DNA of 64,000 nucleotides from the NCBI GenBank assembly GCA_905178155.1, contig CAJINV010000005.1, forward strand, positions 5,550,279 through 5,614,278. The letters are read 5' to 3'. The translations under genes were made by a program, and so were the position numbers. Below, one piece after another: positions 1-35,494 of this stretch. Under the pieces are notes generated by a model, which saw nothing but the letters and a program-made list of their open reading frames with translations, did not search any database and was not told the origin of the DNA. Each line of letters begins with the position of its first letter. The first letter of the stretch is position 1. Source of the stretch: Amoebophrya sp. A120. Its lineage: Eukaryota > Protista > Dinoflagellata.

Positions 1-91
1 CTAGGTCATGCATTACAGGCATCTTGGGTCATGAGAAATATGCATGACAAATCTTGCATTCTTCCAGACCCAGACATTTTTACATTTGATA
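1..91. mobile_element. Introner family A, right part (truncated by window edge)
   Basis: Ends in the family-A right TIR cttccagacccagacatttttacatttgata; next 5 nt (aacag) are the presumed TSD. Confidence 0.85.
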
Positions 92-3232: not shown

Positions 3233-6200
3233 ATGTCAAGTTTTATTCCCACCATGTTCGGAGGTCTCGGCGAGGTGGATATGCATATGGACAACAACCT
3301 ATCCAACAAAAAAGTGTTAACGTTAACGGTTTTCACAGATGGCAGTCATTCATTACAAATTTTGCCTTCCAGCAATACAAATCTGCGCACCTTTTTTCAT
3401 GCATCACTGCATCACAAATTCCGTTTAACGTTAACACTTTTTCTTGTGATGCAACCCTTACAATAACGACAGCACAACGGGTATTGGTGGAACAACTCCT
3501 GGTGCCAATAACATGATGACGAACAACGCGACTAGTTCTCCGACCGCGAAAATGGCCACGGGGATCATCACGCTCCTTGGAAAAGACATGGCGGTCTGCG
3601 AAACGGTGCACAATGAGAAGGACGACGAGTTCGGGCACACGAGTCTTTTCGGCCAGACAGCTTCGGAGGTGAAGGTGTACTTTCCGCAGGTATGCATTGC
3701 ATGCAAAAGTATGATCTTCGTACTCGTTCCAATGCCAGTCTTGCATATACAGATCTAGTTTTGCACCTGAAACAGCATGACAAATGCCAGCTTTTCTGTA
3801 TGGAATAATTTGTCATGCCATTCATATTGGTACGACGACGACTTCCTACGATGACGATATTTTTGCGATGCATAGCAGGGAAAGCTCGATCATTTCGTTC
3901 TCAAGCCCGGCGACCAACTCGCTTTCGAGCTCGACGAATACCAAGACCCAACGAGAAACGTCCCGGAATCCCAGGTGTGGGCTTTGAACCCAGTGTCCCT
4001 CGAGCATAAATTTTCTTCCGACATGAAAGGCCACGGCGCGAAAAGGGAACTCATCGAGCAGCAAGTCTTTCCCTTTCCGAAACATGTGGGGAAACTAGTC
4101 AGGTACAGCAAAGAACATACGAAACAGGGCGGGAACATATCCTGAGTAAAAATGTCCCCACACCAGAGTCAAGATGGGAAATCTGCTAGACAAATCAGCC
4201 AGCTTTGGTTGTTTCGCATGACAAATTTGTCCTTGTAGTGTAATCCTGTTTAGCTAGTTCCGAAGCATTACAGACCTAGCGCGTCATGCTGATTCTAGCA
4301 TCACAAATTCCGAAACGCGGCGAGGAGATGGCTCGTATGGGGCTCCGCATGAGAGACTTTTTTGGCATGCAATTTTGCATGACAACTCTGAGATGGGGAC
4401 GTTTTTACTCAGGATACAACATTCGCGGGAACTTCGGCAACGGGTTTATTGAGGCCAAGGACGCGGCGGACTGTGATATCTACATTCACCATTCGATCGT
4501 GTTAGAAACAATCCCGATGATGACCTTTGTCGCCTTCGACGTACATTACAACGCGCAAAACAAGCCGTATGGAAGCCTCAGAATCGAATAAATCAATAAA
4601 GTTGAAATAGTTTGTCATGCATAAAATGCAACGCAGAAAGTGCCTGTCTTGCAGACTAGGCAAGGGAGGCACATTGTAAGCCTGTTTCGGGGTAGAAATA
4701 GAGCTGCCAAAGCTGCATGAAAAAAGGCGTCTTCCTTACCCAAACAGCATTACAAACTGGATTTCGGCTCTACTCAAATTTGTAATGCGCGGCTTAGAAA
4801 TTGGGCTTGCAACTGGTATCGATTTTATGCATTACAAGTTACTTCAACTTTGTCGATTTCAACTCTGACACATCCATAAGCCGCAAGCCAGCGCCCCGCT
4901 GTGGCAGTTGGTCGAGGATTTGCCGAGTTCGAAAACCGTGTGGGAACAGCAGCTACAGAACAACAATAAAGGCGGAAACAACAACATCAACTCTGGTGGC
5001 CTCATTACCGCTCCTTCCTCTGCGCAGAAGCCCGCCCTGATGCAGCGCTCTTCGTCCCTCCAGACAGCGACAATGACGCAGAACAATAAACTCGATAAAA
5101 ATGATCAGCTGAATCTGTTGCAGAACATCACTTCTGTTTTAACCAACATCGTGACTGGGAATCAGTCCACGTCCGACGCCGGCGCGGCTCTGGCGCAACT
5201 CGGGCAAACCATCCAAGCGCCACAAACGCAGAGGGTTGGAGCAGGTATGGGGATGATGAGCAACAACGTGGGAACTACTACGCAGCGAATTCAACCACCA
5301 GGAGGGGTTAATACAGCGATGTTGACTTCGCAAAACAACAAAAGAGATCCAAACGAGAAGGAAACTTTTTTGAACCCAGCCCGGCACATCAAGGACGAGG
5401 CAAGGGAGTATTTGGAAAAAAATTTGGACAAAACGGTCCTGAAAGACATCCACATCGGCGTGATCGGCGATTTCACCCCCGACGGCGACCACACCATCAT
5501 CCACGCGGCGGAGTGCAATGTCTCGACCGACCGCAGCCAAATCCCGCAAAACGGTATGTACTTCGTACCGAACTACGTTTTGGGGAAGTACGAGTTGAAA
5601 CGGGGCACGATGATCGCCTTCCGGATTGAGTTGAGTAAGGAGGGACACCCGCTAATGCAGCACGCGGATTTCGTGAAATTCGGAACCGGGTTTGGGATTT
5701 GGGAGCTCACGACACCCTTCCGGGCGGAACAAGATGTAATTTTCGGAGATTACTTCGGAAAGTAGGAATGGGAAGAAGAAGTCATGGAAGTCATTGGAGG
5801 AACGCCGGTTCTCAAATCATCAATATCCGGTTGTCTGTGATCATTACAAGCTGCGATGCATTTTGAGAGGTTGATGGTTGTTAGGATCGAAAGTGTAGTG
5901 TTGTGTAAAAGTGTACTTCAACCATTTAACGTGTTAGCCAACTACACGCAAAACTCAGCGAAGTTGCAGTCTGTGCAGGCGTCACGCGCATTCGCATTTT
6001 TCGGTTATTATATATGATTTTATGGTGCCACAGAATTTCATGTAATCTCTAAACCGATATAACAACCAAATAAAGAACCGCGCACGATAAAAAAAGCTTC
6101 CACGATCTTCCTCTTCCTTTCCATACCACGATCGTGAATATGTCAACGGCTGGCAACGCGTTTGTCGAAACTAATGTGCTGAAGAAAGAGTACAAAAACG

Positions 6201-8204
6201 ACGCCTACATTCACGACAAGATCATGGAATTGTGCCACCTGGGTCTGAACAATGTTATCTGCTTTCGCGTGCACATCTCCGGTTCTGGGAATCCCCAGGT
6301 TTCCGCCCCGGTGTGGCGGTTGTGCATCCCGGGCGGGCACAAGGGGGAAAACGACCCGGCGTTGCTGTTTCAGGTAAAGATTTGTGTTTCATCTGTTTGC
6401 GCTTTTCACCATTGCGATTTATCACTCTATGCTTAGGCAGCATGACAAATTATGTATGAAGCTGCAGCTCAGGAGCAATTCTTTGTCTTTTCCACAACAA
6501 CAGCAAGCGCTGGCGGAGAAGAAAACCGGTCCGACGGTTTCCGCGGCCGCCGCCCAGCATCAAACCACCGCGACGATTCGATCGAGCAGCAAACTCCTGA
6601 TCCAGCAGGTCTCGGAGGAGGAAAAGCAGCATGATGATGGGGAAAACCTGTGGGAGCTTCGGTCCCTGGACGAGAAGCACACCATGCGGGACATCGCCTT
6701 CCACAATTTTGAGTACGAAGGCTTCGTAAACAACATCAACAAGGTCGGGCATGTATCCTGTGCAAAAGTATCGTACTCGTAGTAATCGCAATCATGCATT
6801 ACAAATTTCCATCCCAAAGCAAAATAGCATGAGAAATTCCATTCGTTATGCTGACCGAATTTGTAATGCGATTTCTACTAGTACAATGCTTTTGCAATGC
6901 ATAGCATGGCTTCGCTCGCGCCCCCGGGTATTTCGTCGACGAAAAGAACCGGAACATTTTCCTCCACAAGGACATGGTAGAACGCGGGGAGATGAAGCCC
7001 AACATGCGGTTTATGCATTGCAAAAGTATCGCACTTAGTACGAGATTGCATGACAAATTTTCTCCGGTTGAAAAATGAATTTGTCATGCTAGAACAGTAG
7101 AAAATGAGTTTTGTCATGCATGGTTGCGATGCATTACCATTACTTTGAGTGCGAAGATGCTTTTGCATTTGATACGGTTTCGTTTCAAGCTGCATTTTAA
7201 CAAGGAGGGGTTACCGCAGGCGAGCCAGCCGGTCTGGGTGTGCCTAACCGCGGAGGGGGCGGCGACGGGAGAGCAGGCGGACGGAAAGGGGGCTACAGCT
7301 TCTTCCACGGGAGGTGCGTTAAACGTGGTCCCGGTAGTGGGAGCCACAGCCGGAACAGCCATAATGGCGGGGCGGAACGGAGCAATCGGAGGTGCTCCGC
7401 GGCTAAACTTAGCAGCCACTGGCGGCTCGGTTGGAGGGCACCAGCAACCGCAACAGCCGCAGATAAACAATCGCAACCCCTTGTTTGGCACGTCCACCGC
7501 TCCTAATTTTAATCCTTCTGGTGGAGCAGCTGCAGGTACAACTTCTAAAAAGCTGATGCCATTGCCGGGTCGCCCTCCGGCGATGGGGCAGCAGCAGTAT
7601 CAACTGTAAAAATGTCTGGGTCTGGAAGAATCCACCTTGTCATGCTGATTTTGGATTCTAAAAAAATCTGTATTGCAAGAGCAGCAAAGAGAGTCCAAAT
7701 TTTGCAGCACGGAAAGAGCATTTGTCATGCGGAATAGGCTTCAGGAAGCCCTCTAAAAATCTGTGATGCTAGGGCATGCGTCACAGACTTGAGGAGTCAT
7801 GCAAAATGTGCATGACAAACCTGGCAATCTTCCAGACCCAGACATTTTTACATTTGATAAGCAGTCGCAGGTGACTACAAAGGGAAATAACAATAACTTT
7901 TCTACAAAAGGCGGCGGGAAGGGTGGCAAGGGGAAGATATGACAGGAAGAAGTGTTAACGTGAAGGTTAACGGAATTTGTGATGCAGCAATGCATCTTCA
8001 CGAAACGTATCAAAATTTGTCATGGATAGCATGCATATTGGGCTACATTTGTGATGCATGACTGCAATCTGTGAACACCGTTAACGTTAACACTTTTTCC
8101 TGTGATAGAAGAACAAGATCAACGAAGATTATAGGATGGACAGTTTTTTGCCCAAAAACCTGTTCGGAAATAGCAACCAGGCGAGCAGGCCGACTCCGTA
8201 TTAG
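3233..8204 (+). CDS. Multi cold-shock/OB-fold domain RNA-binding protein, split by 9 introners and 1 canonical intron
   Basis: Removing each element plus one TSD gives one ORF with repeated CSD-like motifs (GNGFIEAK..DIYIHHS; GNAFVE..DAYIHDK; GHGFARA..NIFLHKD), each followed by F.V/LH...G/K.PQA/VS.P.W; ends PTPY-TAG. Confidence 0.8.
3300..3451. mobile_element. Introner family C
   Basis: TIR ...aaaaagtgttaacgttaacgg / ccgtttaacgttaacactttttc; TSD caacc; join DNN-PYN in frame. Confidence 0.85.
3691..3874. mobile_element. Introner family B (diverged)
   Basis: tatgcattgc..caaaagtat / atatttttgcgatgcata; TSD gcagg also yields GT-AG ends; join FPQ-GKLD. Confidence 0.85.
4138..4416. mobile_element. 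Introner family D
   Basis: TIR tatcctgagtaaaaatgtcccc / ggggacgtttttactcaggata; TSD gaaca/caaca; join GGN-IRGNFG. Confidence 0.9.
4568..4878. mobile_element. Introner family E
   Basis: Long TIR tatgga...aaagttgaaata...tgcataaaat; TSD agccg; join NKP-QASAPLW. Confidence 0.9.
5763..6125. mobile_element. Decayed introner (singleton family)
   Basis: Degenerate TIR taggaatgggaagaagaagtcatggaag / cttccacgatcttcctcttcctttccata; TSD decayed (gaaag/ccacg); removing element +5 nt gives YFGK-IVNMS. Confidence 0.7.
6374..6503 (+). other. Canonical GT-AG spliceosomal intron
   Basis: cag|gtaaag ... ctttgtcttttccacaacaacag|caa; phase 0, joins LLFQ-QALAEK. Confidence 0.7.
6754..6903. mobile_element. Introner family B
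   Basis: TIR tatcctgtgcaaaagtatcgtac / gtacaatgcttttgcaatgcata; TSD gcatg; join VGH-GFARA. Confidence 0.9.
7012..7174. mobile_element. Introner family B
   Basis: Family-B TIRs; TSD cggtt; join NMRF-RFKLHF. Confidence 0.9.
7598..7859. mobile_element. Introner family A
   Basis: 32-bp TIR tatcaactgtaaaaatgtctgggtctggaaga; TSD agcag; frame restored. Confidence 0.92.
7938..8107. mobile_element. Introner family C
   Basis: tatgacaggaagaagtgttaacg / cgttaacactttttcctgtgata; TSD gaaga; removal eliminates a TGA and extends the ORF to 8204. Confidence 0.88.
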
Positions 8205-8219
8205 GAGGTGCATTTTTAT

Positions 8220-8434
8220 TATGCAAGAAAAAAAGAAAAACTGTGTAAGTGTAACTCTGTAATGCAAAACATGCAACAGAGTTACACCTGTCATGCCACA
8301 CAGCCATGAAGTCCTTTTTTCATGTGTATTTTCCCTTACAAGCCACACATGACAGGTTTTTTCTGTCATGTAGAGCAAATCTGTGATGCTGTCAGCCAAA
8401 GAAAGTTACACTAACACAGTTTTTTTCTTGGATA
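8220..8434. mobile_element. Introner family F, just 3' of the stop codon (3' UTR)
   Basis: tatgcaagaaaaaaa..actgtgtaagtgtaac / gttacactaacacagttttttcttggata; TSD tttat. Confidence 0.88.
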
Positions 8435-9258: not shown

Positions 9259-12200
9259 ATGGCCATGCTGCGGTTCCAAAGCGAATCTGTTGAGTCTATC
9301 TCATCTTCCCGCAGCCCTACAAACCGACCTGGAGGTGCGAAGGTGAGGTTCTGCTTGGCGACAAAGACCATATCACATTTTCGCCTCGCAACCATTTTTG
9401 CGTTTCACTGTCTCTTGTGTAGTGTGCAGATGAAATTTTCTGTACTAGCGCTCGGGCTCGAGCTAAGGAAAGCGGTAGCTGCAACGCCTGCTGCCGGAGG
9501 TACTAGTCCAGCTCTACTCGTGCCGCACGAACACCATGTTGAGCATAGTACTCTGAGTTCCACAGCCACTGCTGCAGCTTCTGTGATTCAGCATCCTGCC
9601 GCGGCCGCTCGGAGGCCGGTGCCGGCAGCTTTGCAGCAGGCAGACCTGCAGCAGCCTCAACAACCAGAAATCAATCCAAGCGGCCCCGCTGGACAACAAC
9701 TTGGCGGCTCGCCAAAATCCCCCGATGCCACACGGTCGGACTTAGCAGCTTGGGCGAGGAGGCATCAAACTACCGGAGGCGCAGCAGCAGGGTCTTTGCT
9801 GCTGAGCACGCAGTTGCACAGTCTGATGCCCGGTGGAGGTGGTGGGTCGCCGGCAGGGAGTCCGGTCGCGGCTGCACAGCCAGGAGTACTACAGGTACAG
9901 CACCAGTACAACCCACATCACGCACCAGGATATGTTGACTATGCATTACCTGCTCAAGAACATAATGGGCATGATGCAAATCCAAATGCATCTTCCCCAG
10001 AACAGGAGCAGAATTTCTACATGCAACAGCTCCAGCTGCGGCAGCAGTTGCAGCAGGAGCAGACGCAGTTGCGGATGTGGTTGCACCACCATCAGGTTAC
10101 TAGTGCGCAAGCACAACAGCAGCAGCAGCAGCAGTACTATGCGCAATATTACCATCAACAGCAGATGATGCAGCATGCGCAAGCTGGTGGTCACACAGTT
10201 GGCCAGCAAATGGTTTGCCACGGAGGCCAACAGGCAAATGCCGTGGGAATAAACGCGGCAGTGTCCCCCGTAGTACAGGGTGGTGGTGGTAGTGTTCCAC
10301 CTAATATCATGATGTCTCCTGCGCCGCCTCCTGCCAGTGCTGGCGCAACAACTACACCTGCGGTTGATCATGTTGGTGCGGCTGCTTCGAACTTGGCAAG
10401 CGCGGGCACGGGCGGCGGGGGTGTCTATCACGTCGACCAGCAGGTCGTTATGCAACGGCCCACCGAGCACGTATGGAGTGTGCGAGGTACGCTCGGTTGC
10501 CCTGTGATGCAAGTGGTGCATCAAACTACGGTTCCGGTTCTCACGAGTGGTGCAACAACGACTGGAGAGCAAATACCGCAACAGCAATCTTCCTCTGCCA
10601 GCAGTACAGAGCCTCGCCCTACTCAGCAGCAATTTGATCGGAATGTTGCGCACGCGCGAGAGCTTGCGTCTGCCACGAAAGCAAATCTGGGGACAACGAG
10701 TCCAAAAAGTTTGGGGCTAGTGTCAGACGGTTGTTCCGCCGTTCATGCATCATATGAAGCGGGGACACAGGAACTGCAATTTGGAAGTGCGTCTACCTCA
10801 GGAACTGATGCGCAATGCGCGGCTTCAGCGCCAGCGAAAGAGCAGCACGGTGCGTCTACCTCTGATGACCATACTCACCAAGAACAGCAGCAAACGACGG
10901 GCAGTGGTGGGAGTGACGCGGGCTTTTACAACACCTACAGTGGCTGTGGGCCGCAAGAACATGGCTACCTCTACCCTCACCCACCGTATCAAACCGGGAC
11001 AGGAGAAGGGGAACAACAACAACAAGCACAGTGCCCACAGCAGCTACAGCTGCCGCCCCAGCACAACTTTATCCCTTCTGAGCACCAAGATCAATATCAA
11101 GGTCTTATTCATGCGCCCGGAAGAACCCACGATCCACCTGCGGCGCAGTTTTACAACTCTGGAGGAGGATTTGTTTGGGGCCAGCCCCAGCAGCCGTTGA
11201 CCGAGGGCGGAGTGCCTTCCTATGAGAGTGCACATCTCCCCCTCCTCCTCGTTTGTTAGGCTTGAACAGCAATACAAAAGCCAGCACTCCTGAAGCCTGT
11301 GCATGACAAGTTCACCGGTCGTCAAAGGTAGTACTGTTTGGCCTTCCAAAATTTGTCATGCAAACAGTGCTACAGGGCAGCAAATGGATTTGCGGTTTTG
11401 CATAACAAATGAGGATGAGGGGGAGCTGTGCAATGTCATACTTCCATGGATGTTACCATGATTCCTTACTCGCCGGTAGCCAGTTATGGAGGCATCAGGA
11501 TCGAAATCGACAAAGTTGAAATAATTTCTCATGCATAAATTGCAAGGCATGAAGTGCCTCTCTTGCAGGGATGGCAAGTGAGGCCGACTGGCAGCCTGTT
11601 TGCGGTCTGCGATAGAGCTGCTAAAGTAGCATGACAAAAGACGCCTTTTGTCCCTAAACAGCATGACAACTGGATTTAGACGGTGCCGAAATTTGTCATG
11701 CACCGCTTCGAAATTGGGCTTCCAACTGGTATCGATTTTATGCATGGCAAATTATTTTAACTTTGACGATTTCGATCCTGACACATCCATACCAGTCCGA
11801 GCACTGCGGAAGGTCCTCGCGCAGGCAGTACCAGTATTCATCCCGTAGTACAGCCCTTGTATGCGCCGTCGCCGGCTGGAGAAGCTTCGGCTTCAGGTAG
11901 GAAAAATCCTCAACAAGGGGGGCTGAGTCCTGCTCCTGGAGAAGTACTAGTAGACACAACTACCATGACAATCACTGCATCTCCCTCCAGTAACGCGATG
12001 ATCACATCCCCCGTTGGAACAATTTTTCCCGAAACCCCATCGCCATCCAGAATGCACAATTTGAGCCAGGAGCCGGGTGTTTTTGCAGCAGCTCAGGATC
12101 ATATTACAACTTCTAACCAGTTGTATCAGACGGCGGATGCGGACCTCCAAGCAGCTCTTATTTCTAGCATGAATCTGCAGCAAGAACCGCGGGAAATGTT

Positions 12201-16450: not shown

Positions 16451-19170
16451 ATGTCGACCCCCAACCCGTCCGACTTGTTCAAGAAGTTCGCCCCGAAACT
16501 GAACAAAAACAAGGCCAAAGCGGGGAACCGACCGGCGAATGCAAGAGGTGGATCCTCAGGCTCGGGTGCAGCATCCAATGCAACTGGATCTGGTCTTCGG
16601 GGGCAACAACATCATCTCCTCGGCGGGAACCAGCCAGGCGCCAAAATCGCCGGGTTGAAATCCAACAGTGCCTCTACCGCCGCGCAGAACGATGTCGAAT
16701 CCTGGTTTGACGACGGCGCGCGGGAGCGCGATCGGCAGTTGTCGAAGGAAGCGGCGATACTGCAAAAGAAAAACATGATGAAGAACAAGCAAGAACTGGG
16801 GGGCGGGCTGCAGGGATACGGAAATAAAGCTAGTAGCGCCGCGAGAGTTTTACCAGGTGCTGCGTCCGCTTCTAAAGCAGCGACAAGTGCGACCACGGGG
16901 AGAAATGTGTTGAATGGAGCGGCGGGAATAAACAATGGCAAGAACAACAACGTGCGGGGAGTGCAGAACGGCACTACAACTCAGCGATCCGGCAGCAGTG
17001 CTGGGAATGCTGTGGCTCGTGCAGCGGGGAGCAGCGCTAGTGGATCCTCCGCTCCGAAGTCCTCTCGACCGCAGCAGTTGTTGGGTGCAGCTTCCTCGTT
17101 ATGGAGGCGTCAGGATCGAAATCGACAAAGTTGAAGTAATTCGTGATGCATAAAACGGATACCAGTTGGCGCCTAGTTTCCAACTGGCGCATGACAAATT
17201 TGGGTAGAGCCGAAATCAAGTCTGTAATGCGGTTTGGGTAAGGAAGACGCCTTTTGTCATGCTACTCTAGCAGCTCTATTGCTATCCCTCAACAGGCTTA
17301 CAGCCTCCCTCCCTTGCCTACTCTGCAAGACAGGAATTTTGTGGGTTGCATCTTATGCATGACAAACTATTTCAACTTTGACGATTTCGATCCTGGCGCA
17401 TCCATACTCGTCTTCGCACAATCAAAGCAACGCTTTCGTTCAAAACCAGCAAAATAACAACACCTCCTTCAACCACGGCGATTTCCACCATAATTATTCC
17501 AACAACACCATGAGCAGCAAGCTCACCTCCCGCCCGTTGACGGAGATTTCCAAATACGAACTCGACGACCCGAACGCATTGTCTCGGCCGACGACCCTGC
17601 CCTTTCAGTTTCTCGACACAGATTACTTTGGCGGGGCGAAAAGCAGAGAATTCTTGCCGGATAGCGCGTGGGCGGGAGCTGGTGCAGTGGTGGGAGAGGA
17701 AGATGATATGGATGGCGACAATTATGCTCAGCTGGTACAACTACAAACCGCTTCCGCAGGAGGGGCGAAAAGCAACAAACCCAAGACTCTAAACGACACG
17801 ATTTCGACCCACTTGAAGGAAAACGAGGACGAAGACGAGATGGAAACTGTGCCCTCGGAGTCCGATGAAATTCCCTTGCGGAAGGTACTGTGAGGAAAAA
17901 TCCCCCCTCCACATATCGAAAAGGTATGTTCCTATAATTTGTGATGCTGATTTGTGGCCACAAGTCCTGTCTCTCTTGCAAGAAGGCAAATCTAAGGAAC
18001 CCGCCGCCTTATGGAGGCGATTTGTAATGCTGTTTCACCTACATGGCAGGCCTCTGCTATGCTAAGCGCCTACAACAAAACACCCCTACGCAGGCTGAGG
18101 CTTTGCCTGTAGTGCCTCACTGCAGGACAGGGCTGATTTGTGTACACAAATCCAGCAGCAGAAGTTTCCGCTTCAATATGGGGAGGGGGGATTTTTCCTT
18201 TTGATAGAAGGAGAAAGAGAAGCAAAGGCTGAAGATAAAGCGAAAATCCTCGACGTCCAGTATAATCATGGACGTTGACGAGGAGGAGGATCCTGGTTCC
18301 GCAGAAGTTCTTCCCGAGTGGGCGACTGTCCAGGCGAAAACCCGACAAGAGTACTTGGAGATCAAGCGAAGTGTCCGAGCGCTCGCACACAACGGGATCG
18401 TGTTGTCCGTGCGGGAGGAAGACCACGCCACCATATGCATTGCAAAAGTATCGTACTAGTTCTAGTATGAATTGCAATACAAATTTCCTCAGCATGAGAA
18501 ATAAATGCGGATTTTACTTGAGAAAGAAATTTGTAATGCATGAATGGGATTACTACATGCACCAGCACGATACTTTTGCACAGGATACACCACTGTTGCC
18601 GACAATGATTTGAACGAGTGGACACACATGGTCACTCCGATGAACATCCCGTTTGCTTCGTCCGCGTTTTACCAGCGCTACGCCAACACCCAGAACGACG
18701 TCGGGACCTTGTTTGTCTACGACGATGGCAGCGTGGAGCTGCAGACGCTCGACGGGATGCGGTTCGACGTGGACCTCGGGACCATTCGCGACCAGCACGA
18801 CCTGTTCGCCAATGACCCGTATCCTGTGCAAAAGTATCGTACTCGTATGACTGCACTACAAATTTCCTCAGCATGACAAATAAAATTTGTGATGCGGATT
18901 GACGTTAAGAAAAAGCTTTGTAATGTATGATCGAAATACGAGTACGATGCTTTTGCAGTGCATAACCCGCATGCCGACGAAATGTACGAGTTGGGCGACA
19001 TGAACCACGAACTTGTCGTGAAAACGAAAAACGACCTGCCGAAAGACCCGGAGACGCTGGCGCGGGAGGCGTTCGAGAAAGGGGAGGAGGTGGACGAAGA
19101 GGAAATGAAATTTTCGGAGGCCTTTGCGGAAATGTTGAAGGAGGTCAGGGAGGGGTTTAAGAAGAAATAA
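16451..19170 (+). CDS. RPC4: RNA polymerase III subunit RPC4 (C53)-like protein, 4 introners
   Basis: Rejoined C-terminus VGTLFVYDDGSVELQTLDGMRFDVDLGT..QHDLFA..EMYELGDMNHELVV resembles the RPC4 domain (recognised by eye); long low-complexity N-terminus is also typical. Confidence 0.6.
17100..17406. mobile_element. Introner family E (opposite orientation to 4568 and 11485)
   Basis: Family-E TIR; internal sequence is the reverse complement of other copies; TSD ctcgt. Confidence 0.92.
17886..18206. mobile_element. Introner family H
   Basis: aggaaaaatcccccctccacatat / atatggggaggggggatttttcct; TSD gaagg also yields GT-AG. Confidence 0.9.
18434..18587. mobile_element. Introner family B
   Basis: Family-B TIRs; TSD cacca; join HAT-TVAD. 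Confidence 0.9.
18820..18964. mobile_element. Introner family B
   Basis: Family-B TIRs; TSD acccg; join NDP-HADEM. Confidence 0.9.
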
Positions 19171-19198
19171 TCATATACAATGTGAATGAGACAAAACT

Positions 19199-23163: not shown

Positions 23164-26100
23164 ATGTCGGCGTTTTCCAACATTGCACCAAGCCAAGCAA
23201 CGATCTCGTCTTGTGGAGCAGCTGTTTCCGGTGGTCCTGGTCGTCACGACAAGATGCGGACTCTACCACCCAATCTCAAGCTGGCTTGTCGTCTTCTGCT
23301 TGCCGCGGACGTCTTGTCTCCTTGTTTCCTTCATCAAGACGGCAACATTTCTTCTTCTCCCACTGGAGGCCTCTTCGCAACGGGGGTCACTGCGAGAGCG
23401 ATTGGGAGTTATGCTGACGCGCCCACCTCCTATGCAGGAAACGACCAGGGCCAAGCTCGTGTCCGCACCGACGTAGGAGAAGTCTCATCGGGGGAGCTGC
23501 TCCGCCCGAACTTACATGCGGACGCAGGGCAGATTGTTCCAGAAGTGCTTGGTCATCCAAAAGACCATCTTACTCTTCCACAAGCGTCCGTGGGTGCCGG
23601 GTTGCCAGGAAAACCAGCACAAGGTGTTGAGCCAGCTCCCAAGAAGCGGGGCAAGATCCTACCGTTGAAAAACCAAAAGCTGACCCCCGTCGGTCCCAAG
23701 GCCAGCAGCCCCAAGCTCGACGCCAAGCCAGAAATTACTACACCAAAAGACGGCCGCGGTGGCAGGGGCAGCAGCTCTGACGAGGAATATGTTATGGTCG
23801 ACTCCATCTCGTCCACGCCAGCAGCGTCAGCGACAAAATCTTCCGCGTCATCTCCTCCGACGCCGACCGCGTCGGTTGGTGGTGGCCTCGCTTCGCCCGC
23901 TCGCAGCAAGAGTCGAAGTAGGAGCAGCAGTAGGAGCTCCCGTAGTAGCAGTTCATCCCGAAGAACTGCAAATGGAGCAAGACGTTGCTCCCGGTCTTCC
24001 TCTTCCTGCCGGGGAGAAAGATCACTCTCGTCCCGCTCTCGTTCGTCTTCGACGGGCAGGAGCGCGGCTGTAGCAACATCAATCGCCGAACAGCTCAGCA
24101 ACCTCTTCACCTTTAGCCCACTCTTCCAGAGCCGCGGCGAGGGGGAGCCACTGCATGAGGAGCAGCAGCCTTTTGCGTATAATTACCAGCCGGGCCTTGC
24201 GCACAAAACCAGCCAGCAACAACTGGCCGACTAGTTCGACCAGAGTCAGTACTACCATGGTCACAATCTCCGCGTGACACACTGGTACAAGAACTACGGC
24301 CCGAAGGCACACAGGAAGGACCAACTATTCGAGTATAACGACCACTTGCAATACGTATACGAACATCGGAACAACGCAGTGAGGGACTATCTAGCGGACA
24401 TGGCGAAGGAAATCATGAAGACCCTCATGGTAGAAGCCCACCAAGGGAACAAGCTCTTGAAAACAACTGAGAGAACAGCAGGAGGGGCAGCTCCAGTGCA
24501 GAAAAAAAGTACTAGCACCAGACCTACAACAACTGGTGTGAATATGAAACATCAAGCCGTCCTCGCTGCTAAAAATATCCTCGATAAGCTGCGAGCAAAG
24601 AATGACCGCACGCTCTTGCAGCTGTTTGAGACCGACTTTTTCGAACGGAAAGATCAAGATATGGAACTTGCAGCTGCCCCGGACGAGAAAGGGAGAAAGG
24701 GACCACAGCGGGGCCAGGCGTCCCTGGCGTACGCCGATGAAGAGGAAATTCTGGCAGGAAAAGTTGGACGTGACGTCGACGGGAAGGGGACACTGAAGCC
24801 ACCTTCGCTTAATGACATTATCCGGTTGTGTTGGGCACCAGCTGCAGGATCAGGAGAGGAGATGAAGCGACCGGATGTGGATTTCGGTGGAAATGATCTT
24901 CGCGCAAGTGGAGGTCAACAAGATAGTCGCACAAGAGTCTCCTCAACGCCGGCGCGTGCAAGTAGTCGTCCCAAGCCGCCAGCGCGCATGATTATGCACA
25001 ACCTGAGTGAAATCCATGACCTCTTCTCCTTCCGGACCCATCCCGCTGTTGTAGATCTTTGGAGGCACCTATCAAGTGTAAAAATGTCTGGGTCTGGAAA
25101 CTTGTGATGCTTTGTGGCATATCATGAGGAGGCCACAATTGCTGGCTCAGCATGACAAGTTTCTGAGCTTCTAGGTGTTGCCTATTCTGCATGACAAACT
25201 ACGTTTCTGCATGACAGAAAAGTGGGGCGCTTTGTCAATGTGCATGACAGATTTAAGAGTCATGCCAAACAAGCACGACAAACATGAATTCTTCAAGACC
25301 CAGACATTTTTACATTTGATAGCACCGCTGCGAAACCGATAGGGAAGGTTTGGTTCAGGACACCCGCTTGGGCTACGCATTTAGCATCTGGAAGGCGCTG
25401 AAAGAGGTGCGGGATGGGGTACTAGTAGGAAACGAAATGATTGGAGGTGGTAGGAGCGCCACCTCTTCTACTATCGGCGAGGAGATTTTGAAGCACTTGA
25501 TTTTGAACGGAGAGGCCGACCGAGTTCCTTTACTTGGCAACCTGCAATTGACCTCCGAATGGCGGCGCACCTACGATGCTGAGCACGCCTCTGGGCAGCT
25601 GTTGCAGAGGCTGGAAGACTGGCACAAAAGATTGGAGCAAGTGTTGGAACAAGAAGGGTCCTTGTCGTCGTTTTCATTCGCCATGCCGTCGTCTGCTGCG
25701 CCGGATGAAGAGCCGGAGGTTATTTCGATTTCCTCTGCCTCTTCGGACTTCGAAGTGCTGAGCAACACCAGTGATGCAAACGATGAGCTGTTAGAAGAGT
25801 TGGAACGGCTTGCCGTTTTGCCCAAGACTGTCGTGCAGAAACTCAGGCAGATGTCTTCGAGGTGGTACCAGCAACCGATCTTGTCTTTCCTTCGCGAGTT
25901 GCAGGACAAAATCGAGAGGAATCTGGAGGACCATGTCTTCGCTTTGCATTACGACCAAGTTGGGACTGACCACTTTGTCCTGCAATACAGTGCGAAAGAG
26001 GACCTTGTTGTGCAGCAACTATCTCAAGCTGCAGCTTCGCGTAAAATAAACGGCGCTACAACCAAGAGCATGGACCTTGTGCAATCCGGGTTTGAGCTCC

Positions 26101-27271
26101 TTCTGGACCAAGTGAAGAGCCAGATGAAGGCCACACGTCTGCGCGAGGGAGACGACGAGGGCGAGGGGCCCTGGGATCACATGCTCTCTAGAAGTCCTTC
26201 AGCGGAGGTCGAGGGAGGCGAGGAAAGTCAAAGTCTTCAGAAGTGGGAAGTGATCGCCGTGGAGCCGTCGTCCTCCGCGTCTTTCGAAGTGATTCTATAC
26301 CGCGAGCAAGACAATTTCTCATCATATAATGGTGGTGCCCCGGAGTTTCTGCTGGCCAAGTTGCAGCTGGTCTTTCTGGAAGACGAGAAGCATGCAAAAA
26401 TGGTGGAACAAATTCAAGCCATTCCGGACCACAAACGGCATTCCGCGGAGTACTTTCTGCAGAATCCGGCTGTGGACTTCACGTCGGGCAGGAACCACAT
26501 GCAGTTTGGGCAGCGTGTGAAACCGACACCGAAGCTATCAAAATGAAAAATCCCCCCACCCCATATCAAAACGAAGTTTGTGATGCTGGATTTGCGTACA
26601 CAAATCCGATTTGTCTTGCTGGAGAGGACTGCAGGCCCATATCAAACCTGAGCAGAGAGGTTTTGGGCTAGGCTCTTAGCAAGAGAAATGTCTGCGCTGT
26701 AGGCCCAACAGCATCACAAATCGCCTGCATGAAGCGGCGGAGCCTGTGGAGTTGCCTTCTTGCAAGACAGAGATGATTTGTGGTCGCAAATCAGCATGGC
26801 AGATTTTCTGCTACGTCGTACCTTTACGATATGGGGAGGGGGCGTTTTTCCTCACAATAGAAGCGAGTTTCTTGCCCGGCACAAAATAAGCGGTACCAAC
26901 TGACTGCGGTGAAACTGGAACTCCAGTGGGAGCTTGGTGCTCTTATGATCCCAGGTAAGAGCAAAGGCGTGTCGGGCCAACATCTGTTTGACAAAGCCGA
27001 ATACTTACAAAGACGGGAGAAGATACAGAACAAGCGGGGTGGGCTGAAGAAAGGCCAGGAGCTGAATTACCCGGCTGCCGATGATGGGATGTTCTGGTCC
27101 GATGCGTTCACTGCGTCATTTGTGGTGACACCTACAACTAGTACTCGTGCGGATTCTTCTAGCGATAAGGTTGTTCGGCCAACTTTCGTAGCACATCAGC
27201 ACCGCACGGCGTCGGACCTCATGCAGATATTTTCGAAAAAGGGGAAGACCGAGCAGCAGTATCGGTATTAG
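23164..27271 (+). CDS. Large hypothetical protein with two introners and one in-frame TAG (24232-24234)
   Basis: ORFs 23164 and 24274 share a frame separated only by TAG; ORFs 24274, 25350 and 26909 join after introner removal. Confidence 0.6.
25070..25321. mobile_element. Introner family A
   Basis: Family-A TIRs; TSD gcacc; join LWRH-RCETD; same 252-bp length as, and very similar to, 41835..42086. Confidence 0.92.
26536..26859. mobile_element. Introner family H (opposite orientation to 17886)
   Basis: Family-H TIRs swapped relative to 17886; TSD gaagc; join TPK-RVSC. Confidence 0.9.
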
Positions 27272-28327: not shown

Positions 28328-31300
28328 ATGAAGGAGGTTGTCTACGACAACTACCGACCAGACTGGTGGTCTGCGACTACTGCCACAGGAGAACAACAAG
28401 CGACCTCCTCAGCTGGTGGTTCTTCAACATCCGCCTCGGCAACGACCGGAGCAGTACTAGATCCTGCTATCGCCTTGGCGGATCAAGATCCCGACGCGGA
28501 CCTCCCCCGCGATCTGCATCTGTACCTGCATGGCGAGTGGAATTCGGATTTCGACCCGGAGCACAGCCATCTCTACCAAGTTGCGAAAGAGATTTACGCG
28601 CAGCAGCACCAGGAGAATTTGCGAAAAGAATCCTCCAAACCCTCCGCCATAGAAGCGCAGAACAGAACAAAGCGATTGGAACAGGCGGTGGGCGGAACAA
28701 CAGGAACTAGCCCCACAATTTCTGGTCGTGCTACAGAAGACCACGTAGTTGACCATCATGCTACAGATCACGCGAGCTTTGCTCCCGTACAAGTAGCTTC
28801 CGACCCAACCCCACGGCGCACGCCCCAAGTCGCGCCAGCGAAGAGCGCGGCGGCACTGGCGATTGAGTCGCCGCCGGTACCGCCGGGGTTGATGCCGAGT
28901 GGGGACCACGAAAGGGGTTCTTTACCACGACCTTTGAAAAGCTTTGCGCTGACAGCAGATGGGGAGCATGAGCAAGGGGAAGGGGAATCACTACAGGCCG
29001 CACCCAGCGCAACCTCCCCCCTCGCGTCTTCTTTTCAATCTCTGATGCAGGGCTTGGAAAAGGGCCGGGACGCGCTGCTGCAGGGGTTTGCGGAGCTGAA
29101 TGCGGGCGGCGGGGACGAGGACCATGCACAGCACTCACCATCAAACTACTTCTCGAAAAAATCCATTGGAGGTGACTATGGATTGAGCGAGGGGGATCCG
29201 ATCGTGTTAGCGACCGCGATGAGAACGAACCCGGGTGGTGCATCAACTACAACTATGCCTGCTTCTACAACGAAATTAGATTTAGGCAGCACGGTAGATC
29301 AGCAACAAGCACCCGGTCGTCCCCCCGGCGCAACCAGCTTGAGCACGAAACTGTCCACAGCGATAGGGCCGACGCCCTCGGATCTCTCTATGGGGTTCTC
29401 AAACTACGTTACATTCTCAACTGTATACATGAATTTCTAATGCAAGAATAGCACAGGTCAGAGGGAGAGCCTTGCGCGTCTTGCATTACAGATTTGGCGC
29501 GGATTCTAGTGCTATTATTTAGCCCTCCGATAATTTGTCATGCGAAGCAGCTTCATCGTCTGGGCGGCTGGCGGCTCATGGTCATTTTGCATGACAAATC
29601 ATGCAACAGTTGAGATGAGTGTAACGCTTGAGAGCTCCATACTCTCTCGCCACAGAATCCCGACCAGCATCACCGCGGTGTGTTCCCACGCCAGGGAGTC
29701 GGTCGTGTTGTTCGAAAAGCAGGGTAGCTCCTCTCGCACCAGCAGTGGTAGTTCGTCGACATCCTCTTCTACTGTCCCACTATACTGGAGCGCCCCGTCC
29801 TGCATGGAGACCCTGCACTGTCCCGCGACAAAATCGAGGTTCGGAGAAAAAGTCGAAAAAGAGAACAGCGCGGGGTTTGAATTCATCGTGAAAAAGCGAA
29901 CTTCCTCTGCGGAAAGGAAAGGGATTTCGCCCTCGAATCTTGGTGGGGAACTAGATTTCGCCGGGGACAAGGAAAAAAGCTTTCAACTGCGAGATGAAAG
30001 TAATGGTGATCATCAAAACGATAGTACCAGTAGACTCGGCTATGGCGCCTTGGCGCTCAGATCGCGGTCCCCGGATGCTGAAAATGAGGATGAGGGGATA
30101 TTAAACAACTTCTACCCGCCGCTCACCGAAGACGTCCTTCTCTCCCAGCTCCCTCTGCCGGAGCAGAAGCAGCAACGCCTGGTAGCGAATGCAACGCCGC
30201 AGAAGAAGCTCCCCTCCACTTCCAACGCAGTCGTGCACCAAATTACAACGTCGAAGATCAATCCGGAGGACCACTTGGCGAGCAACAGCAGCAAGCTCGC
30301 CTTGTCCGACTTCCCGGTCTACCATGACAAATCGAAACGAAAAACGGTGGTTGTTGCAGACAATTTCGGGTCAGTCCATGAGTTTTTCCTACCGCACCAC
30401 AACGAAGTTAAAAATCCTGTCGCGGATAAACCCGACCCAGATTCATCCGTGGAAATCGGCACGGACAACGATTTCTCCACCACAAGAGGATTTTACACGG
30501 GCGGGAGGATCATGAATTTCGCGCCGAAGTATTTGAAATCGCAGGAGCAATTTTCCCCAAGTTCGAAAATCAAGTACCAGAAAATCTACAAATCCCCCGA
30601 CTGCCTGTACGCTACGGACGCGACCAGGGGATTAGTGGAGCTGGATTTTAACAAAAAGGAGGTGAAGTTTCTAAATTGCGTAGAACGTCGTAGTTGTTGC
30701 AGGCGGCGGGGGCAGGAAGCTGGTGAAAGAACTACCGGGGTGGACGAGCAGGAGCCGATAAAGACCGGGGTGGAGGGGATCCGGATGATTCTCAGCGAGT
30801 ACGACATCGAAGTCGAGGGACACCTGGTGGGACCCTCCTATCTCATGAACAGCGGGATCAAGCTCAGCTTTCCGACCGGGTTCAAGTGCAAGGAGTTGCT
30901 CGAGGCGAAGGAGGCGGTATTCAAAATTCCGAAGGCGAAGGCGGAGTACACGACGTTCCACGATAAGGTGTGCCAGCTCCTGAAAGCGCGCGCCGAGGAG
31001 GCTCTGAAGGGGGTCCGCGATTCCATCGAGCAGGTCCTGGACTACACGAGGAGCATGCAGGAGTTCCTGAGCCGGGCAAGGTATAGCTACTTAGCATTCA
31101 CAGCGTGGTAGCTTCTCGCAGCACCTTCTTGATAATACCGCCCGGCGCTCGGCTCGAAAGACCTAGCGGTCGGCCGGGGCCAGTGCTGGTCGCTGGGTGA
31201 CACAAGCGCGCCGCCTTTCTTAGCAAAAGCCCGCCGACTTTGGCACGGCCTGGGGCGGTCGGGGCTGGTAGCTGTTTCCGTGTGATGGTGATTGGCGCGG

Positions 31301-34300
31301 CGCAGATCAAAAGCCCGTAGGCTTGGCGCCCTGCTTTTGCACCCAGGAAATGCGCATGGGAACGCAGCCGGCGACGCAGCGCGCCCTTTTGTAATCTTTC
31401 AGCCGTTTCATGTGCTTCGATTTTAGTGTGTGCGCTTCTCTTTTCGCTTTGTGTTTCTCTTGCAACTATGGCAAGGGTGGGCAGCCATTCCAATAAAACG
31501 ACAAAAAACAGCAACCGCGCGATCCGGGACAACCTGGAGATCGCACTGCAGGTCTTCGCCAAGGGATCGGACGATTACCAGCGGGCGGCCCGCTGCATAG
31601 CGTATCTCCGGTACACTACGGAAGAGCTCGACGAGGAAGCGATCCAGGCTGGCGAGGAGGCGAAGCTGGAGGCGGCCTATCTCAGGAACAATGTGCCCAC
31701 AAATTACATCTCGCGGCCGCTACTTGCATGCCGGATTCCGTTTTAATGAAAGAGAGCCGTCCTTGTCTCGTTTTGTGGGCCCGTTTTTCCATTGCATAGG
31801 GTGGACACCATCTTTCGGACCGCGTTCGACCGGGTGATGGGGTACGGGTTGTTCTCGGATGCTGGAGTTGCTATGTCCAAGTTGCGGGAGCTGGTGAAGT
31901 ACTCGTTCAAGGACATGCTGAATGACACGGACAAGAAGTTGGAGGAGAGCCTGACTTTGATCGACAAATACACGACCAACGCAACGAAGTTTCTCGATCA
32001 GAATGAGCTGATGTGCCTGACCGCAGTCGCGAAGAACATCACCTCGGCCATCCACCAGAAAAACCGCACCGACCGCGTCGACGACAAGGCCGAGAAGGCG
32101 ACGAAGACCCGGAAGCAGAAGGACGCCGACAAGGCTGCGGTCCCGGCGGCGAAGCGCCAGAAAAACAACGCCGGGGCGGCGCGCATCGCGGCGGCGGCCG
32201 AACTAGCGGAAGACGAGGACAAACACGGGATTAAGGCCGGCGATGACAAGATGTTTGCGGACTTCTTTTCCGACGACTTCGCGCCGTCGCCGAGTGGGAA
32301 GGGGAAGAGCTTGTTCGCGAGCAAGTTGCTCCAGATCAAGAACAAAACGAAGAAATAAATTCAATAGTTCCTAGAAGTTTTCCTTAGATAATTGACGAGC
32401 CCGAAATTGATTCGAATCAAATCAGCAGGCCGCACCTACACAGCAACAGGCGAAGCGCAAAAGGCTTCCACCTAGACAGAGCCCGGAAGGAAAGACCTTC
32501 AAAAATATCTTAGATCGTTGCGGATGAATTTCTGAGGCTCCTACCCAAGCTAGACAAGTCCGGACTTTAGAAAGCCAGGGGCGAAACAACTTGTAAGATG
32601 AACACGGCGAAACCTGTTTTGGTGGTGCTCCGACATGCTCCGTGGCCGGCGACGAAACCTGCAGGCGGGCGTCGTTTCATCTGCGCGCAATGAGGGCGTC
32701 AAAATTTTAAAATCGCTGATATTAATAAGATCATCTTGGGAACTTGGACCTTTTGAGGGCAGGAAGCTGGTGAAATAACTACCGGGGTGGACGAGCAGGA
32801 GGGGATAAGACACGAAATCGGATTCGCCAACGGGATCTGCGCAACGGACCGGCATGTGTTTTTCACGGACAGCATATCCAGGAAGAAACTACACCCAATC
32901 CAGTTTATGCATGACATGCTCATGCATGATTTGCATGACAAATTGGATGTGGATGGGCCTTTTTTTGTGGATACAGCAGCGAGGATATCACGCCGTGGTT
33001 GGTGTATCGAGGGAGAAAAGGTGGAAATAAAGCTGATGGAAGTACTAGCTCGAGTAGTGGAACCCAAACTTCCTCTACGTCAGGAGCAACATCCACTTCC
33101 ACTACCCAAAATAGCAGCACATCATCAACCTCCCTCCACCGCTCCTACGCGATCGAAGAGGCCCTCTCCATGGACATCGCGCGGTGTCAGCCGAAGGGGA
33201 GGCTGTTCTGCTACGACAATGAGACGAAGGAGACGGAACTTTTGAAGTCCGGTCTCTATTGCCCAACAGCGGTAGCCGTCTTGCAGCATCACGGGATAGC
33301 GCAGTCGCCAACAGCGCAGTCGAGAAGTAGCAGTCCAAGCATCCCATTCGCGACACAAGGAGGAACTGCCGTTCTTAACGCTCCTCCTGTGCTAAAAATG
33401 GACCCCCACCATGGGCCCCAGGGGCAGTCGGGGCAGGCCGGGGGGAGTACTGGAACATTATTCCAGTCTCTCGCGCACAATATCAAATGCAAAAATGTCT
33501 GGGTCTGGAAGGATGTAACTTGTGATGTTGCATTTGGATTCTACAAAAATCTGTATTGCATGAACAGCAAAAGAGGCCCAGCTTTTGCGACGGCGAGACG
33601 GCATTTCTCATGCGGTATAGGCATCAGGAAGCCATCACAAAATCTGTGATGCTAGGTCATGCATCACAGACATCAGGAGTCATGCGAAATGTGAATGACA
33701 AACCTTGAATCCTTCCAGACCCAGACATTTTTGCAGTTGATACACAAGATTCACCAGCAAACTGCTTTTCTGTTGATCGCGGAAGCGTCGATATCCAAGC
33801 AAAAAGTGTGTAAGTGTAACTTTTTTGCAGAAACAGCATCACAGATTTGTTTTGCATGACAGAGACGAGAACCTGTGATGCGTAGCTAGTACGCGAAAAC
33901 ACGTATGAAAATTATAGCCTCTGATGCACATCCAGCATGACAAGTGTAACTGTATTGCAACGTCCGCAACATAAAGCTACAGTTACGCGCGTGTTTTCTT
34001 GCATACTCAAAATTGCGGATTGTGAAGTTCAACGTGGTCACGAGAGAGATCGTGTTGGTCATTGCGGACAGATATGAATCGCAAATATGTCCGGGTCTGG
34101 AAGGAAGATGCAAGGTTTGTCATGCTTGTCTGGCATGACTGAAAAGTTTGTAATGCGTGTCCAAGAAGAGAGCCTTTTGCTTGTCATGCAAGCCGCACTG
34201 TTTGTCATGCGGAAAACGCAACACGAAGCCGCGCAAATATTTTTCATGCTTGGCTGTGCATTACGGAGCTCAGCATGACAAGTTTCCAGAGGACCCAGAC

Positions 34301-35494
34301 ATATTTACACTAGATAACAGACTACCCGGCGTTCCGCTGTCCCTGTCGCCGACAATAACGATCGGGAGCACGACGAATAGCAGTAGTGGTGGTGGTGGAA
34401 AAAATCGACCGGCCGGCGCGAACAATTCCTCCCCGAACCATTTCACCTCCGTCTGGGTTTCCTTGGCGCCACACTTGATCGTCGACCGCTCTGCAACGTC
34501 CCCCACCAGCTTATTCAAAACCTTCGTCCCGAACTTTCTCCAGAAGCAAATCACCAGCTCCGCCGGGGGAAGGAGTTTGTTCCACAAAACGTCCAGCACA
34601 ACCCACGCGTCCTCCCCCACGTCCGTTCTATTGCCGTCCGGTGCTAACCCGGTCGTGAGTTTCACGGCAGCAACCGCGACTAGTTTCTTTTCGAAAATGT
34701 CGGAGAAGATTCACCTCCCGGGAGTCACTAGTACAGGATCTACTTCGACGACTGATGGTTTGACCTCTTCTAAAACCTCCTCCCACGGCATTCCGAAGGG
34801 TGTTGCGGTGAAACTCGACGCGCGGAATGGGGACGTGATATGGATTGCAAAGATGTCTGGGTCTGGAAACTTGTAATGCTAAAAGTGAATGATAGACGCA
34901 CTACAATACGCAGCTACGCATGGCAAGCTGCGTTTTTGCATGACAGGTAAGAGGGCCTTTTCGTGCCGACGCAACACAGATTCTCGAGCCATGCCAGACA
35001 AGCATGACAGACTTGCACTCTTCCAGGCCCAGACACATTTGCACTGCATACGTGATCGAGTATTACCATGCGGACTTGTTCGCTATTGGGGCGAAGATGA
35101 CGAACGTGGACGTGCCCGAGGCGGTGAGAGAGCCGGTCACAGAGGAGGACGTCGTGGTGCGGTCAGTGAGGGAAACGACCGACGATGACGGGTGCAGGTT
35201 GTTGATGATCTGTCAGGGCGACAAAGTTGGGAAGTTTTCTTTCAACTTGAACTATGGATTGCAAAACTACCGACCATGGCATTGCTGCACTAGTGGTAAT
35301 TACATTACATTACAACTTTGCTCTGCTTCTGCATGACAAGTGAAATTTGTTATGTTGATTTACCTTACGAAGTAATGCATACACGCAACCACTACGAGTG
35401 CGATACTTTTGCAGAGGATACCAGCGCGAAAATTGAAACGATCCGGAGGGCGGGACTAAGTAAGAACACGGGAGGCGGTGGGGACGGGGAGTAG
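28328..35494 (+). CDS. Strictosidine synthase/APMAP-like beta-propeller protein; 7 introners plus a 2-kb insertion
   Basis: Rejoined motifs in expected order: LYATDATRGLVELDFNKKEVKFL; FANGICA..VFFTDSS; GRLFCYDNETKETELLKSGLYCPTAVAV; FLLIAEASKLRI; IADRLPGVP; VWVSL; GDVIEYYH. Confidence 0.75.
29389..29641. mobile_element. Introner family I
   Basis: tatggggttctcaaa..gttacattctcaactgt / acagttgaga..gtaacgcttgagagctccata; TSD ctctc. Confidence 0.88.
30710..32801 (+). mobile_element. 2-kb insertion bounded by 45-bp direct repeats (30710-30754, 32757-32801)
   Basis: gggcaggaagctggtgaaa[g/t]aactaccggggtggacgagcaggag duplicated; deleting insert plus one repeat gives DEQE-GIRHEIGFANG. Confidence 0.8.
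30755..32358 (+). CDS. 5'-truncated foreign gene fragment inside the insertion (helical, K-rich tail), in frame with the host 5' exons
   Basis: Three GC3-rich coding blocks; GT-AG intron 31081..31511 joins RA-S-NRAIRD; second acceptor ~31799, donor uncertain; TAA at 32356-32358. Confidence 0.6.
32875..32973. mobile_element. Short introner (99 bp, singleton)
   Basis: tatcca..aa / tttgtggata; TSD cagca; join restores conserved FTDSS. Confidence 0.85.
33481..33742. mobile_element. Introner family A
   Basis: Family-A TIRs; TSD cacaa; similar to 7598..7859 (both 262 bp). Confidence 0.92.
33792..34005. mobile_element. Introner family F
   Basis: tatccaagcaaaaagtgtgtaagtgtaac / gttacgcgcgtgttttcttgcata; TSD gtcga/ctcaa; join AEAS-KLRI. 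Confidence 0.8.
34073..34316. mobile_element. Introner family A (reverse orientation)
   Basis: TSD acaga; join IADR-LPGVP. Confidence 0.88.
34839..35050. mobile_element. Introner family A
   Basis: TSD cgtga; join NGDV-IEYYH. Confidence 0.88.
35253..35420. mobile_element. Introner family B (decayed TSD)
   Basis: tatggattgcaaaa / ttttgcagaggata; flanks tgaac/ccagc; removal gives FNLN-AKIETIRR..GE-TAG. Confidence 0.75.

Follow-up and report, generated by a model that had tools for sequence, protein, structure and literature searches.

Introner elements of the dinoflagellate Amoebophrya sp. A120, a parasite of algae, were described by Farhat et al. 2021 (PMC7789003), whose accessible text gives them inverted repeats composed of TAT, seven variable bases and then As, direct repeats of 3-5 nt, non-canonical borders and a proposed hairpin. 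A120 elements with terminal inverted repeats (TIRs) and integrase-like open reading frames (ORFs) are also reported in the available part of a later study (Gozashti 2025; PMC12130899). Here we analyze 64,000 nt of the A120 genome (GenBank assembly GCA_905178155.1, contig CAJINV010000005.1, positions 5,550,279 to 5,614,278 of the forward strand; hereafter the window), in which 47 elements of the form 5-nt duplication, TAT[G/C]…[G/C]ATA, duplication were catalogued, with one more (55130) found later; elements are named by their first position. Their removal is real, occurs at the RNA level, and is independent of orientation but polar along the transcript. The window elements are the TAT-ended introner elements published for A120, as far as the accessible description goes: they lie in host genes, carry a repeat of TAT, seven variable bases and at least three As, are flanked by direct repeats and are removed at non-GT-AG borders. 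They also have the TIR, the target site duplication (TSD) of fixed length, the multiple copies and the lack of coding capacity that characterize MITEs (miniature inverted-repeat transposable elements) and other non-autonomous TIR transposons. Furthermore, two exon peptides of the window are 100% identical to the annotated A120 proteins P0001 and P0004.

The A120 elements themselves are already known, as are two-orientation introners elsewhere. In Polarella glacialis and Aureococcus, as in A120, DNA-transposon introns occur in either orientation (10.1101/2020.10.14.339549). In the accessible part of that source, however, G[TCA]...AG sites come from the repeat or from a constrained duplication and every class is biased to one orientation, whereas in A120 the duplication is almost unconstrained, both dinucleotides are dispensable and the orientations show no bias. 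Insertion of introners in the opposite orientation is also allowed for in the available text of Gozashti 2022 (PMC9860276). Compared with the accessible text of PMC7789003, in which 'orientation' refers to genes, the new features are the splicing of both orientations at about 1:1, a cut register of -1/+4, a polarity of the junction bases (a G followed by a purine, G|R) and a one-sided target motif. A search of the openly available literature, including PMC7789003 apart from its figures, found no test of orientation, register or target motif in Amoebophrya elements.

Two further systems resemble the A120 elements. The nonconventional introns of Euglena (PMC12501133, in its accessible parts) share with them inverted terminal motifs at unequal fixed spacers, of which the 3' one is the longer, a purine at the downstream exon start, slidable junctions arising from direct repeats and a proposed MITE origin. 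Euglena is an unrelated lineage without donor-exon preference, and its motifs are CAG/CTG with spacers of 3 and 5 nt, in contrast to TAT/ATA with 1 and 4 nt in A120; the geometry is alike, but the A120 elements are not members of that class. Circular excision products are reported for Euglena in the available text of a review (PMC11282704). Fritillaria borealis likewise has introns that derive from MITEs and carry inverted repeats and duplications, reportedly removed by a modified U2 spliceosome (PMC11282704; 10.1101/2025.08.15.670264; both as accessible). Its borders are mostly AG-AC or AG-AT after an exonic TAC, whereas in A120 both border dinucleotides follow the target.

Removal from transcripts in both orientations

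Contigs of the data sets X1 to X3 were taken as RNA, with + as the sense strand, because a canonical GT-AG intron (31081..31511, + strand, GTATAG...AAAACAG) is lost and gene coverage is uneven. This intron is absent from an X3 contig alongside seven element introns. The 15 joints listed, out of 18, comprise this GT-AG intron and 14 elements, and all 14 element joints skip exactly the length of the element plus 5 nt. The original prediction, made from the letters of the window, was that copies of one family are removable in either orientation from + strand genes, and transcript joints establish this for two families. Family A is removed as reversed copies at 33481..33742 (-; 267 nt skipped) and 34073..34316 (-; TSD ACAGA; 249 nt skipped in X3), and as copies of the other orientation at 34839..35050 (+; 217 nt skipped), which shares a gene with 34073, and 41835..42086 (+; 257 nt skipped). 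The direct alignment of 33481 with 41835 is weak, and the orientation of 33481, the same as that of 34073, rests on the family graph. Family K is removed both at 29389..29641 (+; 258 nt skipped in X3) and at 41050..41288 (-; 244 nt skipped in X1 and X2), a fifth opposite pair that was absent from the prediction and was recovered by interior alignment.

Among the copies named in the prediction, joints were seen directly for 34073, for the family E copy 17100..17406 (-, reversed in a + strand gene; TSD CTCGT; 312 nt skipped in X1), for the family H copy 26536..26859 (+; TSD GAAGC; 329 nt skipped in X1, X2 and X3) and for the family B copy 42248..42396 (+; TSD ACGGA; 154 nt skipped in X1, X2 and X3). 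Another family B copy, 42849..42997 (+; TSD TTTTT), also skips 154 nt. Arithmetic covers a further group: the 637-nt gap in an X1 contig equals the remainder (637 nt) after removal of 3300, 3691..3874 (family B, -, reversed, oriented as 55855), 4138 and 4568..4878 (family E, +, majority orientation; TSD AGCCG), the last of these giving an intron at 4567-4882 under -1/+4. The annotated proteins P0004 and P0001 agree with removal at all 13 elements inside them, including 17886..18206 (family H, -, opposite to 26536; TAC variant end; TSD GAAGG; GT...AG borders at -1/+4) in P0004 and 55855..56011 (family B, -, opposite to 42248; TSD GGGTG), which is missing from P0001; these models come from the transcript-based pipeline of PMC7789003 and are not independent of RNA data. 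For 25070..25321 (family A, +, opposite to 34073; TSD GCACC) the joint is outside the 15 of 18 listed; an X1 contig piece stops at 25064, exactly at the duplication, and its relatives of the same orientation, 41835 (88.5% identical) and 34839, are spliced. For 11485..11791 (family E, +, oriented as 4568; TSD CCAGT) the sole evidence is restoration of the frame, the element lying in a 1903-aa frame once removed.

The raw RNA runs X9, X10 and X11 gave 8, 0 and 0 reads on the window. The eight X9 reads, at 7826-7859, match a family A end and their adjoining letters are the same as those of an X1 contig, which hints that some abundant transcript from elsewhere retains one copy.

All four named pairs (families E, H, A and B) align better reverse-complemented than directly, and their interiors alone do so as well when the alignments are repeated after trimming 35 nt off each element end. 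The values, reverse-complemented vs direct, are 0.83 vs 0.57 for 17100/4568, 0.76 vs 0.60 for 17100/11485, 0.71 vs 0.63 for 17886/26536, 0.63 vs 0.55 for 34073/25070 and 0.75 vs 0.44 for 55855/42248. Each named element starts where it had been placed and is flanked by a perfect 5-nt direct repeat. The predicted restoration of frames also held: deleting elements with 5 nt yields + strand frames of 531, 1903, 599, 816, 1080, 507, 1691, 721 and 418 aa. Left in place, 39 of the 42 elements in these frames interrupt the host frame with a stop, another two shift it and one (38852) would be read through.

The orientation ratio was assessed in the window together with at least 154 loci, 153 of them from one assembly, that were retrieved by a scan with the family B end motif, so that family B is over-sampled. 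These loci hold 277 unique elements, and the host strand was called for 176 of them by a codon model combined with an open frame. Calls were consistent in 44 of 48 multi-element loci; the 4 discordant ones were dropped, leaving 165 elements, or 207 with 42 from the window. Overall, orientation was about 1:1 with no bias, although errors in the strand calls would themselves push the ratio toward 1:1. Among the matches listed, a scope that applies to all counts over the extra loci below, and the window, family B stood at 47:52 (95% interval 0.37-0.58), family A at 13:15 and family E at 7:3, with the remaining families compatible with 1:1; multi-element loci gave 24:26, and family B at the strictest threshold for strand calls gave 12:21 (p 0.16). 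In eight loci both orientations of one family occur on one called strand. The extra loci match the window solely at elements or repeats, and no empty orthologous site was found among them. The contig source of one locus (L036) differs from that of the other 153, and no complete element was called there.

Cut register, terminal motifs and junction bases

The cut falls at N|TAT…ATA-NNNN, that is, 1 nt before TAT and 4 nt after ATA in the direction of the transcript (-1/+4). Perfect duplications make junctions slidable, and decayed duplications fix the cut. The intron at 31677..31802 (+; C-TATC...GCATA-GGGT; decayed TSD CGGCC/GGGTG) has zero slide and borders CT...GT and is cut exactly at -1/+4, with all three of its duplication mismatches in the intronic halves. 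A slide of 1 leaves -1/+4 or 0/+5 both at 33791..34009 (+, decayed TSD) and at 43052..43268 (+, TSD CTTGC/CTTTC). At 40319..40559 (+, TSD CGAGT/CCAGT), which has extra bases in the left inverted repeat, the slide is 4, the joint allowing registers from -3/+2 to +1/+6 and excluding -4/+1. At 55130..55343 (+, TSD AAGGA/AAAGA) the annotated protein P0001 retains the left duplication copy through position 3. Finally, avoidance of stop codons requires a cut after position 2 or later in L053 and at position 4 or earlier in L077. Only -1/+4 fits all seven of these informative junctions, and the mirror register -4/+1 is ruled out in six of the seven, including all four informative RNA joints. Pairing between the duplication copies was rejected as a guide for the cut: 31677 matches at 2 of 5 positions, yet it is cut at length plus 5.

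The legend in PMC7789003 treats the border position as variable and unknown. The accessible Table S4 of that paper lists the nine commonest non-canonical motifs of A120 (GT-AC, CT-AG, AT-AG, GT-CG, GT-AA, CT-AC, AT-AT, AT-AC and TT-AG), all with T second; this is what N followed by TAT leads one to expect, though mapper preferences may contribute. In the window, the duplications GCAGG (3691) and GAAGG (17886) produce GT...AG at -1/+4, which may account for the canonical introns that were reported to carry inverted repeats.

The elements stand out clearly from chance: 32 perfect TSD-TAT[GC]...[GC]ATA-TSD elements of 60-400 nt occur in the window vs 0-4 per shuffle (20 shuffles), and with the extra loci 12 families have at least three copies. 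In the TIR, TAT occupies positions 1-3 in 45-47 of 47 elements and A occupies positions 11-14 in 34-41 of 47. In composition, the 5' end matches the reverse-complemented 3' end. TAT/ATA does not vary, position 4 carries G or C, and pairing is weak at positions 5-7 and strong at 8-14. The symmetric stem had been proposed to juxtapose the ends. In support of this, predicted folds pair positions 8-14 in register in 40 of 46 elements on the sense strand and in 39 of 46 on the antisense strand. On the other side, a sense-strand excess of G-U over A-C is absent (58 vs 58; 25 vs 18 among isolated mismatches, p 0.36), position 4 does not covary (paired in 25 of 47 vs 21.8 expected), and the elements at 31678, 33792 and 40320 have no in-register pairing and are still cut at a compatible register. 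The sense strand had no advantage in folding energy (24 of 46). We infer that the terminal motifs set the cut and that the stem at most draws the ends close. An extension of the stem into the exons was rejected, there being no excess complementarity at ±1..30.

As anticipated, no pyrimidine tract is apparent at the 3' end in either orientation, the last 45 nt containing a fraction of 0.48-0.59 pyrimidine. YTRAY occurs in that interval in 6 of 99 family B, 17 of 28 family A and 9 of 10 family E copies. The junction bases themselves are biased. With backgrounds matched both for codon phase and for the side of the target motif (n = 197), G at the last exon/last intron base was found 77 times vs 55.8 expected (z 3.4), a purine at the next base 132 times vs 110.9, and G|R junctions 51 times vs 31.2 (z 3.9), compared with 27 vs 22.4 in mirror. 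The G excess is present in both element orientations (34 vs 26.9 and 35 vs 27.3). Polar junction bases combined with a 1:1 orientation are best read as the outcome of post-insertion selection favoring well-spliced sites. G...AG at -1/+4 was found in 9 of 207 elements, and the GT...AG borders of U2-type introns do not define the set. An intron phase bias (94:47:66) was rejected as evidence for a spliceosome, since codon-phase availability of the target motif largely accounts for it. The original prediction stands as regards independence of orientation, but removal is not symmetric, the cut at -1/+4 and the junction bases being polar along the transcript.

Insertion targets and other sequences in the window

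Reconstructed empty sites revealed a one-sided motif on one strand, in which, counted from the duplication centre, position -15 is T and position -13 is G. Over 304 sites the counts were 160 for T-15, 140 for G-13, 136 for C+13 and 165 for A+15, and left and right motifs were anticorrelated (odds ratio 0.21, p 1e-10). TnG on either side was present at 182 of 301 sites (~60%) vs 12% of random centres, in the context W-D-T-Y-G-Y, and its side was independent of element orientation (family B, 72:67). The target motif resembles the start of the subterminal repeat of the elements, ATTTGT. Furthermore, a subterminal motif TGT[ACG]ATGC / GCAT[TGC]ACA is common to otherwise unrelated element families and is a likely transposase binding site. 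A transposase may bind both the subterminal repeat and the target motif.

Several elements depart from the common form. The element at 49278-50621 is a 1344-nt family B copy with a foreign interior of ~1.2 kb and no long ORF, the removal of which gives a 490-aa frame; its interior contains an 11-nt repeat and, at 49704-49888, 9.2 tandem copies of a 20-nt unit. A 586-nt element at 19199-19784, with long nested inverted repeats and unrelated to the window families, lies directly after a stop codon in non-coding sequence. The element at 38852-39056 forms a 210-nt intron that is stop-free in the host frame and is 98.6% identical to a copy in another locus (L033), which marks it as young; its retention could be tolerated. 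A 762-nt unit is repeated in three tandem copies at 98% identity (44837-46660), the start of which adjoins a truncated family B end at 44796. Decayed, truncated or edge-cut copies without a matching duplication lie at 35253-35420, 46974-47091, 63603-63812 and 1-91.

Every long frame in the window is on the + strand. The P0001 gene (52302-57938; DUF229, PF02995) is split by ten elements, and a weak, below-cut-off match to strictosidine synthase lies at 32978-33478, within the frame at 32757-35336. A Pfam search with 45 exon peptides gave three weak matches, none of which spans a junction; a third protein search found no match, and neither the Rfam search nor the viral contigs gave any (0 and 0 matches). 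An X3 contig (29116-35250) crosses two co-oriented frames, one ending at 32358 and the other starting after 32757, with no joint between them, suggesting read-through or overlapping untranslated regions.

Candidate machinery and its significance

A fixed cut together with polar junction bases points to a machine that reads one strand, acting on signals that the inverted repeat writes on both. Our preferred reading, to which we give a probability of roughly 0.55, is that these non-autonomous DNA transposons are taken out of pre-mRNA at -1/+4 whichever way they point, the candidate catalyst being a divergent spliceosome able to read their terminal motifs. In this mechanism, terminal motifs that are identical on both strands could be read in either orientation, and the inverted-repeat stem would help bring the ends together. 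The 5' end N-UAU-[G/C] would be treated as positions +1..+5 of a donor of the GUAUG type in which +1 is relaxed, possibly by U6, U5 and protein, U1 being reportedly absent. The 3' site would be measured from [G/C]AUA, with the first A of the 3' AUA, 7 nt from the 3' end, as the candidate branch point. Since 1 + 4 equals the length of the duplication, an insertion would revert to the original mRNA whatever its target sequence or orientation, and such exact reversion would let elements spread through exons nearly cost-free.

A divergent spliceosome is favored by several features. TAT occupies donor positions +2..+4, as it does in the sole confirmed canonical donor (GTATAG, G-TAT). The G|R junction is reminiscent of AG|G, the context in which spliceosomal introns lie. 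The ACAGA of U6 pairs with donor positions 2-6 (10.1101/2022.06.08.495308, as accessible), and the available text of PMC7789003 reports nearly all spliceosomal proteins together with U2, U4, U5 and U6 in A120, U1 not being found.

A number of observations weigh against this reading. In the extra loci the host strand comes from a codon model and not from RNA. Among the RNA junctions behind the register a single one (31677) is fully non-slidable, in three of the four informative RNA joints the element ends were chosen after the joint had been seen, and the set is pooled over elements. The first intron base is G in 71 of 207 elements and the end is AG in 24 of 207, YTRAY is scarce in family B (6/99), and one canonical donor is no consensus. 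The G|R bias is uneven (15 vs 12.6 on contig +, 28 vs 14.9 on contig -) and is one among many comparisons, and equal numbers of sense-strand G-U and A-C (58:58) leave the stem without this support. Finally, a downstream-exon purine and fixed spacers also mark the Euglena nonconventional introns, which have been proposed to be non-spliceosomal.

This last point gives weight to the alternative closest to the stem model of the original prediction, a non-spliceosomal machine like that of Euglena, in which a protein would bind the TAT/ATA-capped hairpin, cut at fixed spacers, ligate the exons and release a circular or linear RNA. The architecture is the same, with paired motifs set at spacers of fixed but unequal length (3 and 5 nt in Euglena, 1 and 4 nt in A120); a purine is preferred at the downstream exon start (132 vs 110.9 here), GT/AG is not required, U1 was not detected and stems are predicted equally in both orientations. 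However, the last exon base is biased to G in A120 and carries no requirement in Euglena, TAT sits on donor positions +2..+4 as in the canonical donor, an almost complete spliceosome is present and the stem has no G-U bias, so that we hold this machine to be possible but the less probable of the two. Ordinary spliceosomal definition by strand-specific signals inside the elements, working both ways, appears unlikely. The motif TGT[ACG]ATGC / GCAT[TGC]ACA does supply a branch-like U-n-A-y core, and of 324 elements 209 have it both ways round, 102 one way only and 13 not at all; 124 of 133 matches in the window lie in listed elements and most of the others in element fragments, and families A and E have YTRAY close to the 3' end whichever the orientation. 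Nevertheless, the motif keeps no set distance from the ends, while the 3' cut is tied to ATA and no AG is there to be scanned for, and a weaker form of the motif marks DNA insertion targets, which points to a transposase binding site.

Precise developmental excision of DNA, as in the internal eliminated sequences of ciliates, with transcripts made from excised templates, had been judged the less likely alternative, and that judgment was upheld. Symmetric ends containing TA, exact restoration of the target and independence of orientation would all suit it, and in the one DNA-like run (X5) the absence of any joint of length plus 5 is among 15 of 478 joints listed, from contigs that drop rare variants. 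But a cut with two-fold symmetry should yield -1/+4 and -4/+1 alike, and the mirror is ruled out by four of four RNA joints and two indirect junctions; the polar register and the G|R bias thus argue against excision from DNA. X5 contigs cross element borders at an even depth of 40-46, two of them contain whole elements, and in X3 a contig that lacks elements lacks the GT-AG intron as well. We regard this explanation as very improbable.

The open question in the accessible text of PMC7789003 is how tens of thousands of non-canonical A120 introns are removed with no U1 detected. In place of 'variable' borders, the register N|TAT…ATA-NNNN offers one rule, which explains why the orientation and target sequence of an insertion cost close to nothing, predicts the position of the branch point, yields a minimal synthetic intron and would permit re-annotation of the genome. 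More speculatively, splicing in A120 may have been rebuilt around a transposon end, as a machine free of U1, GT, AG and target that uses a 1+4 ruler, a second and independent origin of the ruler type after Euglena (3+5), with a transposase that finds its targets by means of a copy of its own binding motif, present on one side at the distance of a helical turn. If so, the 1+4 ruler would equal the 5-bp stagger of the transposase, and any insertion, either way round, would be a perfect intron.

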